A DNA stretch of 1,647 nt from Escherichia coli (lineage in GTDB: Bacteria > Pseudomonadota > Gammaproteobacteria > Enterobacterales > Enterobacteriaceae). The notes under the pieces were generated by a model. That model searched no databases and was not told where the DNA came from. It worked only from the letters and a program-made list of their open reading frames with translations. The position numbers were made by a program, and so were the translations under genes. This document shows, piece after piece, positions 329 through 1,478 of the stretch (its first letter is position 1; every line of letters starts with the position of its first letter). The stretch is taken from the NCBI RefSeq assembly GCF_003334765.1, contig NZ_QOWT01000077.1. The stretch is one strand, 5' to 3'.

Positions 329-364
329 AACCGGAAGCCACATTGAGCACTTACGCACTGATGC

Positions 365-389
365 GGGGTGTCGGGGTGAAGCCCTGACC
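365..389. repeat. Left arm of 25-bp inverted repeat (inverted partial copy of the bom arm)
   Basis: GGGGTGTCGGGGTGAAGCCCTGACC is the reverse complement of 613-637 at 24 of 25 positions (mismatch at 377/625). The two arms are separated by 223 bp. Confidence 0.9.
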
Positions 390-394
390 AAGTG

Positions 395-432
395 GTAATC
401 GTATCGGCGTGCATGCGCGGTTATACGATTAC
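395..432. repeat. Hairpin-forming inverted repeat (10-bp perfect stems GTAATCGTAT / ATACGATTAC, 18-nt loop containing GCATGC)
   Basis: 395-404 is the exact reverse complement of 423-432. It lies between the left IR arm and the tandem repeats. Confidence 0.8.
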
Positions 433-539
433 ACATCCTGTCCCGATTTCTGAGGCGTTTTAACGGTGAACGGACGGCAAAAACACGATGGAGCTGTTGA
501 ACGTGAAAACCACGAAATCTGGCAAAAATCACGGCTGGC

Positions 540-581
540 GAGGCTTGCATAGGAGTAAGCGAGGCTTGCATAGGAGTAAGC
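540..581. repeat. Perfect tandem direct repeat, 2 x 21 bp (GAGGCTTGCATAGGAGTAAGC)
   Basis: 540-560 and 561-581 are identical. On the minus strand the repeat begins exactly at the predicted nick (GCTTACTCCTATGCAAGCCTC twice). Confidence 0.95.
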
Positions 582-640
582 CAGTATACACTCCGCTATC
601 GCTACGTGACTGGGTCAGGGCTTCGCCCCGACACCCCCAA
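577..640 (-). other. ColE1/pMB1-type oriT (bom) with predicted nick between 580 and 581 on the minus strand
   Basis: The minus strand reads GGGGGTGTCGGGGCGAAGCCCTGACCCAGTCACGTAGCGATAGCGGAGTGTATACTGGCTTA. From memory this matches the pBR322 bom region (GGGTGTCGGGGCGCAGCCATGACCCAGTCACGTAGCGATAGCGGAGTGTATACTGGCTTA) with only about 3 substitutions. The nick is placed by analogy to the CTGG/CTTA context. The pBR322 sequence is recalled, not aligned. Confidence 0.75.
613..637. repeat. Right arm of 25-bp inverted repeat (part of the bom/oriT)
   Basis: GGTCAGGGCTTCGCCCCGACACCCC pairs with 365-389. Confidence 0.9.
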
Positions 641-1343: not shown

Positions 1344-1478
1344 GCTAGCGGCAGGCGGACAATCAGGGGCTACGTGTTAACGTTCTGACCATGATTGTCT
1401 ATCCTGCATTGCTCTTTTGCCGCCTCAAAATCCTTTGCGTGTTTTTGCTCCCCGTTCTCCAGAAAAAACCGAGCCGCC

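Follow-up and report, generated by a model that had tools for sequence, protein, structure and literature searches.

Why should a very small cryptic plasmid carry a perfect hairpin outside its only credible gene? The question arises at positions 395-432 of the window, the whole 1,647-nucleotide stretch of Escherichia coli DNA analysed here (contig NZ_QOWT01000077.1). An earlier note on this DNA had described a perfect 10-bp stem (395-404/423-432) around an 18-nt GC-rich loop containing GCATGC, and both stem and loop were confirmed, with GCATGC located at 411-416. The hairpin had also been said to adjoin the left arm of a larger structure, and it does lie directly beside segment 365-393 of a long-range inverted repeat (365-393/609-637).

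The first 77 positions of the window recur exactly at 1571-1647, indicating that the window is a circular molecule of 1570 bp that was read with an overlap. It is a variant of the E. coli cryptic plasmid pKL1 (NC_002145), which is among many E. coli plasmids of 1549-1570 bp that are 98.5-98.8% identical to the window over their full length. The sole credible gene of the window is repA (867-1343), encoding a protein of 158 aa with a helix-turn-helix. The open reading frames overlapping 218-679 gave no family match, including three of 117, 63 and 56 aa that run across the hairpin; as these three belong to no NCBIfam family, a coding explanation of the hairpin was dropped. A second perfect 10-bp inverted repeat is found at 239-272 (CGGGATCACC ... 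GGTGATCCCG, with a 14-nt loop); its right arm reads GGTGACACCG in the relatives L015 and L016, so this stem is not strictly conserved.

Folded as single-stranded DNA, the + strand of the 395-432 hairpin reached -10.4 kcal/mol (z = -3.2), a value equalled by 2 of 200 shuffles, and the - strand reached -8.3 kcal/mol (z = -2.4). Among 2000 shuffles of the 1570-bp circle that preserved its dinucleotides, 72 (3.6%) contained a perfect 10-bp inverted repeat with a loop of 3-30 nt, a frequency that speaks for a chance palindrome to the extent that, judged alone, the hairpin is moderately unlikely to have arisen by chance; the comparative data are decisive. The same reading would include an intrinsic transcription terminator or a structured RNA. 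No T-run follows the stem on either strand, the hairpin was unreported by a promoter and terminator scan of 200-900, and a search of the whole window against Rfam at a permissive E-value returned two chance-level matches elsewhere and none at the hairpin. Against all of these stands a covarying stem conserved across thousands of plasmids; chance origin is already refuted by this conservation, and the likelihood of this group of explanations is negligible.

The comparison was made with a query of 121 bp around the hairpin. Matches came from 3,568 plasmid records, among which were 1,905 conjugative plasmids, mostly of ~85-120 kb. Outside the relatives of pKL1 the matches span 364-449 at 75-92% identity. 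In every conjugative or large MOBP plasmid inspected in which nikA was annotated, the match begins 14-20 bp from the nikA start codon; nikA (annotated as 'mobA' or 'NikA') is transcribed divergently from the match and is followed by nikB ('IncI1-type relaxase NikB'). The match abuts nikA at loci L001-L003 and L009-L014, and the nikA-nikB plasmids inspected are of the IncI-gamma/K1 or IncK2/Z type, with MOBP and MPF_I where typed. Two Citrobacter plasmids with the same nikA-nikB pair show the same arrangement. A location directly upstream of nikA-nikB is the position of the R64-type oriT, and locus L010 carries what we take to be the R64 oriT sequence itself, GGCAATTGTAATAGCGTCGCGTGTGACGGTATTACAATTGCACATCCTGTCCCG. 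By analogy with R64, the hairpin is very probably the inverted repeat of an orphan oriT of the IncI complex, where it would act both as a positioning signal for the relaxosome and as a termination hairpin.

Each of the sequence hallmarks of an R64-type oriT that were examined was found at this locus: homology, nick core, spacing, small repeat and preserved complementarity. The distal block, the hairpin and the nick region (Table 1) make up one unit of ~86 bp. The earlier note had taken the hairpin for an extra element in a bom-flanked interval, which was wrong, since the left arm, the hairpin and ACATCCTG/T belong to a single IncI-type oriT; the nick motif 3′ of the hairpin was absent from that note.

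Table 1. Coordinates of features in the 1,647-nt window (a slash inside a nick sequence marks the predicted or homologous nick position)
Feature	Position	Strand	Sequence and remarks
Distal conserved block ('left bom-like arm')	364-393	+	Near-invariant in 17 homologues
Small inverted repeat (8 bp)	370-377/381-388	+	GTCGGGGT and GCCCTGAC; inside the distal block
Nick-distal arm	395-404	+	GTAATCGTAT; perfect complement of 423-432; counterpart of the outer arm of the R64 17-bp inverted repeat
Loop/spacer	405-422	+	CGGCGTGCATGCGCGGTT; 18 nt, G+C 13/18 (72%)
Nick-proximal arm	423-432	+	ATACGATTAC; counterpart of R64 'repeat A', the NikA-binding arm
Nick region	433-449	+	ACATCCTG/TCCCGATTT; predicted nick between G440 and T441
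ColE1-type (bom) oriT	577-636	-	59/60 identical to ColE1 (NC_001371, 1462-1521)
16-bp perfect inverted repeat	734-749/764-779		Upstream of repA; the published pKL1 oriV/RepA-binding inverted repeat
12-bp perfect inverted repeat	757-768/770-781		Upstream of repA; overlaps the 16-bp repeat at 734-779
Third oriT-like site	1357-1417	+	GGACAATCAGGG-N20-CCATGATTGTC, then TATCCTG/C (RP4-type nick octamer)

In an alignment of 17 sequences the distal block of the IncI-type oriT is the almost invariant GTCGGGGYNNAGCCCTGACC. All cells of its small helix are paired when G-T is counted, and because the helix is near-invariant it is uninformative on covariation. The 3′ part of the hairpin loop is also conserved, reading YGCRTGCGCGGT in most relatives and GTGTGACGGT in R64-type copies, and together with the proximal arm it is probably the region recognised by NikA and the relaxosome. 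The palindrome GCATGC within the loop was considered as a functional element and rejected as incidental, most relatives in the alignment having GCGTGC.

Directly 3′ of the stem lies ACATCCTG/TCCCG (433-445); ACATCCTG does not vary among the 17 homologues, nor do most of the bases after it. The invariance includes CATCCTGT (434-441), which fits the MOBP nick consensus (C/T)ATCCTG(C/T) (PMC3772185). This octamer pattern, YATCCTGY, occurs twice in the window where 0.14 occurrences are expected. The sequence places the predicted nick on the + strand between G440 and T441; the stem ends at 432, and the resulting spacing of 8 nt is the same in 17 of 17 aligned sequences. Furuya and Komano reportedly described 8 bp between the R64 inverted repeat and its nick. 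Folded as single-stranded DNA, the region 364-449 forms the two expected hairpins, at -18.4 kcal/mol (z = -2.9).

Base pairing was assessed by counting pairs of an explicit structure on the 17-sequence alignment, in which the sequences are related and do not represent independent events. Of the 10 pairs of the stem, 7 have changed on both sides and 2 are constant throughout, and pairing is kept in 94% of the stem cells. Over the whole structure 96.7% of cells are paired, as compared with 31-43% in controls with the 3′ partner shifted by 1-3 columns, and neither the observed pairing nor the covariation score was reached by any of 500 shuffles. The stem GTAATCGTAT/ATACGATTAC is shared by the window and the IncK2/Z plasmid CP090250, and its counterparts are GCAATTGTAT/ATACAATTGC in TY474p2, GGGAATGTC/GACATTCCC in p13KWH46-3, GCATTTGTC/GACAAATGC in pMB5823_2, GTAAATGTAT/ATACATTTAC in the pESI-like plasmid and GTGTTTGTAATA/TATTACAAACAC in Citrobacter. 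The changes on both sides of seven pairs indicate that the stem is conserved by compensatory change, the very property of relatives on which the earlier note had let its hairpin stand or fall. Paired changes in a palindrome can alternatively come from intrastrand template switching or from wholesale exchange of a cassette.

The nikA genes of 12 loci were translated and compared with the adjacent oriT stems. Loci L003 and L011 encode identical NikA proteins, and their stems differ at 4-5 positions per arm while each remains self-complementary; L009 and L010 likewise agree fully in NikA, and a single compensated pair separates their stems. For any given NikA the 3′ half of the loop and the inner stem are constant, the outer stems being variable. 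The occurrence of one NikA protein beside several distinct stems, each complementary to itself, is an argument for selection on pairing as such. It also gives a hint that NikA recognises the inner portion of the arm, with the outer stem constrained only to pair.

These observations bear on a reading in which the repeat is a palindromic operator in duplex DNA, bound by a dimeric protein (NikA or another), so that no hairpin forms and the arms covary through their half-sites. NikA is a ribbon-helix-helix protein that binds this inverted repeat in R64-type systems (PMC4743918, PMC9282650), and the location of the site immediately before nikA on the helper plasmids would make autoregulation plausible. 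However, the identical NikA proteins beside differing stems do not fit a pair of protein-specified half-sites, and pKL1 has no nikA promoter to regulate. Moreover, according to PMC5863519, which cites Furuya and Komano 2000, initiation on R64 needs only the inner arm of the repeat whereas termination needs all of it, a requirement that is read there as recognition of a hairpin on ssDNA. An operator is accordingly an improbable explanation of this hairpin.

If the hairpin belongs to an orphan IncI-complex oriT, the R64 system offers a model for how it would work. The R64 core oriT comprises the nick region and the nick-proximal 'repeat A', where NikA binds (PMC4743918, after Furuya and Komano 1997). 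A co-resident conjugative plasmid of the I complex (IncI/K/B/O/Z type) would supply NikA and the relaxase NikB in trans. NikA would recognise the proximal arm and the adjacent loop bases (~411-432) in duplex DNA, and the NikA-bound arm would position NikB for a cut in the + strand at CATCCTG/T (440/441), 8 nt further on. The + strand would then be transferred 5′ to 3′ from T441, the inverted repeat entering the recipient last; under the general model of 5′-to-3′ transfer, a repeat located 5′ of the nick on the + strand is the last segment in and is single-stranded at the closing reaction. Its single-stranded arms could now pair, and the hairpin together with the nick sequence would be recognised by the relaxase for the closing cleavage and rejoining that terminate transfer. 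We infer NikA binding, the exact nick position, the role in termination and the identity of the helper alike by homology to R64. The earlier note had offered a protein recognition site or an ssDNA hairpin on the transferred strand, and both correspond to accepted roles of the repeat in R64-type oriTs, from which they would carry over to this one.

The window contains no relaxase or accessory gene in cis, and neither nikA nor nikB was recovered from its open reading frames or by family search; it is not a self-sufficient mobilisation module in which an oriT is accompanied by its cognate nikA and nikB. Since pKL1 lacks both genes, the oriT at 364-449 is an orphan that depends on a helper. In PLSDB the relatives are typed as replicon Col(MG828) and as 'mobilizable', yet without an encoded relaxase. 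The same element is found on other small plasmids without nik genes, namely pColG and ColE1-like plasmids of 2.5-8 kb, and on small plasmids that keep nikA only. Locus L005 (NZ_CP039589, a 2617-bp Salmonella plasmid) carries two oriT copies in inverted orientation, at ~1356 (+) and ~774 (reverse complement). One copy is chimeric, with distal arm GTGTTTGT and the pKL1-type proximal arm ATACGATTAC, leaving its arms non-complementary; it looks like the product of recombination within oriT.

Hairpins in ssDNA can serve as priming signals, and the hairpin could instead belong to the replication origin of pKL1, where RepA or a host factor might bind it or where it might act in single-stranded form as the initiation signal of lagging-strand synthesis. 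The replicon measures 1.5 kb and has its oriV upstream of repA (PMC3832669), and the hairpin does lie in its non-coding half. However, the oriV described in that paper, with an IHF box, Rep sites and a perfect inverted repeat of 16 bp just 5′ of rep, maps to 734-779, directly upstream of repA and ~300 bp from the hairpin. RepA is 100% identical in the window, in L016 and in pJJ1886_1 (NC_022661; L025), whereas the hairpin cassette of these plasmids is only ~60% identical and its flanks are 85-91% identical; RepA has diverged in L015. By location and by its failure to vary together with RepA, the hairpin falls outside the oriV and its RepA-binding repeats. The same hairpin and flanks also travel with unrelated replicons (IncI/K/Z, ColE1-like and IncFIB). 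An identical RepA beside unrelated hairpin cassettes makes a role in replication unlikely, and we regard this explanation as very improbable.

Among the window, L015, L016 and L025 the hairpin cassette (~389-432) is hypervariable, with 58-64% identity between variants as against 83-97% in the flanks, and it is bounded by GCCCTGACCA on one side and by ACATCCTG on the other. The L015 cassette differs from that of L003 (p13KWH46-3) at 1 of 42 bases, and the window differs from L002 (CP090250) at four bases, all outside the stem. Variable cassettes that each nearly match a different helper lineage of the I complex suggest that the segment determining oriT specificity has been exchanged. A tentative extension, which we hold to be possible but would not favour, views the hairpin as a specificity cassette open to swapping: by replacing the segment 5′ of the nick, hitchhikers of the pKL1 family would retarget themselves to new helpers. 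NikB catalyses recombination between oriTs (PMC5714925); such exchange is an attractive candidate explanation, in which NikB could recombine two oriTs and resolution could follow in the upstream module that they share, with GCCCTGACC and the nick as candidate breakpoints.

The shared upstream module extends to a second oriT of the plasmid, the ColE1-type site on the opposite strand (Table 1), whose GGGTGTCGGGGCGAAGCCCTGACC module forms the right arm of the long inverted repeat 365-393/609-637. Segment 577-636 matches ~4,400 mobilizable small plasmids and lies beside mbe/mob genes in pAPEC-O78-3. The left arm is 25/28 identical to ColE1 over the shared module and the likeness ends at 393; the ColE1 nick region reads ...CACGTAGCGATAGCGGAGTGTATACTGGCTTA, and ColE1 has no counterpart of 395-440, placing the hairpin outside the ColE1 bom. 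With the likeness to ColE1 limited to the shared module, the long inverted repeat resolves into two convergent oriTs of different specificity with a common ancestral upstream module, and its arms are not the terminal repeats of one element. The interval that the earlier note had seen as flanked by an inverted repeat thus has 'arms' that are the GGGTGTCGGGGYGNAGCCCTGACC module common to two different, convergent oriTs. A 21-bp unit near the ColE1-type site is present once in the 1549-bp pKL1 and twice in the window (538-558/559-579), as a tandem duplication of 538-579 whose register is ambiguous by 1 nt (539-580). On the - strand this unit, CTTACTCCTATGCAAGCCTCG, can be written as starting at what we take to be the ColE1 nick homologue, GTATACTGG/CTTA (TGG/CTTA); its placement there may be a coincidence or a trace of relaxase-associated or slippage events.

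The second YATCCTGY match of the window falls in the third oriT-like site, at 1357-1417. This segment is 85% identical to an intergenic element of IncX4 conjugative plasmids (pIncX4_WCHEC1622, pCROD2); each record has two copies of the element, and its 11-bp inverted repeat is perfect there. The ~1.55-kb plasmid therefore seems, from these resemblances, to carry three orphan oriT-like sites, of IncI, ColE1 and IncX4 type.

An orphan site raises the question of whether it still works, and the locus might be a relic: an oriT that was once gained through recombination with an I-complex plasmid, no longer functions and now drifts neutrally. The missing relaxase and accessory gene in cis would fit such a relic, as would the state of some relatives: L016 and pJJ1886_1 have a partly decayed distal arm (~14/17 complementary), which also implies that a perfect stem is not indispensable. 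Most host genomes, too, lack a second replicon with the same arm. Among complete E. coli genomes the arm was present on 384 replicons in 353 genomes (totals only, with no breakdown by genome), that is, mostly one per genome, so that co-residence with a matching helper is the exception. Nevertheless, the stem is perfect in the window, 79 records match the surrounding 121 bp at 99% identity or more, and each cassette of the pKL1 family closely matches a living helper lineage.

Mobilisation data for related plasmids also argue against a relic. The mob-less plasmid pEC156 has a 93-bp R64-type oriT (84% identical to R64) in addition to an F-type oriT, and its orphan R64-type oriT is functional: the plasmid was mobilised by R64drd11 with a relative efficiency of 0.24-0.52, which fell to 0.0007 after joint deletion of both oriTs (PMC4743918). 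Within the pKL1 family, a 1554-bp plasmid 99.7% identical to pJJ1886_1 was present in some transconjugants of the IncI1 plasmid pESBL-283 (PMC4382111); along its entire length pJJ1886_1 shares 93% identity with the window, and its proximal arm, GACGGTATTACATTTGC, is R64-like. A relic is thus quite improbable. On the other hand, pKPN2 carries an R64-like oriT, yet it was reported not to be mobilised by R64drd11 (PMC4743918), indicating that similarity of oriT is no guarantee of function with a given helper.

Which helpers might serve the window's oriT can be approached through its proximal arm. The arm and nick region (411-446) are shared exactly by 337 plasmid records, 125 of which are conjugative (85-156 kb), and the most likely helpers, judging from sequence identity, are I-complex plasmids with an identical proximal arm, such as CP090250 and pO26_EH031_2. 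The NikA of these candidate helpers (L002/L012 type) is 65% identical to R64-type NikA, and at this distance R64 itself may not be the best helper.

The locus was compared with known transfer origins. The oriT of R64 (IncI1), with its 17-bp inverted repeat including 'repeat A', its 8-bp inverted repeat and a nick region served by a NikA/NikB relaxosome, has the same order of parts as the window: a small inverted repeat, a large inverted repeat, an 8-nt spacer ending in ATCCTG, and then TCCCG. Identity between IncI-type loci and the window is 81-83% over ~86 bp, and the position upstream of nikA on the helpers is likewise the same. The large repeat is perfect over 10 bp with an 18-nt loop in the window, whereas that of R64 has 17 bp with one mismatch, and the window's arms, GTAATCGTAT/ATACGATTAC, correspond to GCAATTGTAATAGCGTC/GACGGTATTACAATTGC in R64. 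Unlike R64, the window lacks nikA and nikB in cis, and its closest helper lineage is IncK2/Z or IncI-gamma/K1.

Close parallels are pEC156, pColG and pKPN2, small enterobacterial plasmids without relaxase genes that have an R64-like oriT of ~90 bp and often a second oriT of another type; pColG was itself recovered among the homologues. These are ColE1-type (RNA I/II) replicons of 4-5 kb, whereas pKL1 is RepA-dependent and of ~1.55 kb, and the second oriT of pEC156 is of F type, as against the ColE1-type and IncX4-type sites of pKL1. The pCERC7/NTP16/pU302S group has a homologous oriT architecture and also depends on the NikB of a helper (PMC9282650), but it keeps its own nikA and an inverted repeat of ~20 bp, both lacking in pKL1; members with nikA only were found here in Shigella sonnei 53G plasmid B, L019 and L020. 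With RP4 (IncP) and MOBP oriTs in general the window shares an inverted repeat just 5′ of the nick core (C/T)ATCCTG(C/T) (PMC3772185), but the similarity to RP4 is confined to that core and the accessory proteins are others. R1162/RSF1010 follows the same logic, with the inner arm used for initiation and the whole hairpin for termination (PMC5863519), but with a MOBQ relaxase, another nick sequence and no homology.

The hairpin oriT is an already known kind of element and at most a routine new annotation. Small plasmids with an orphan R64-type oriT, or with nikA only, have been described and tested before (PMC4743918, PMC9282650), and 'R64-like' is an established oriT family in large surveys, with oriT-only plasmids a recognised class (PMC10123127). 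We found no paper annotating oriT sites in pKL1; Burian et al. 1997 and 1999, which fall outside the literature covered, may mention bom or oriT homology.

The mechanism, then, is textbook oriT biology, and the gain is one of annotation and not of concept. An orphan oriT explains how a cryptic plasmid that is among the smallest and most widespread in E. coli can spread without transfer genes of its own: pKL1 would rely on I-complex plasmids for relaxosome and pilus, and probably on ColE1-type mobilisers and IncX4 plasmids as well. Such helpers are major vehicles of ESBL and mcr-1 genes. The apparent exchange of cassettes that tracks helper lineages could help in studying how oriT specificity evolves and in predicting which helpers and hitchhikers pair.
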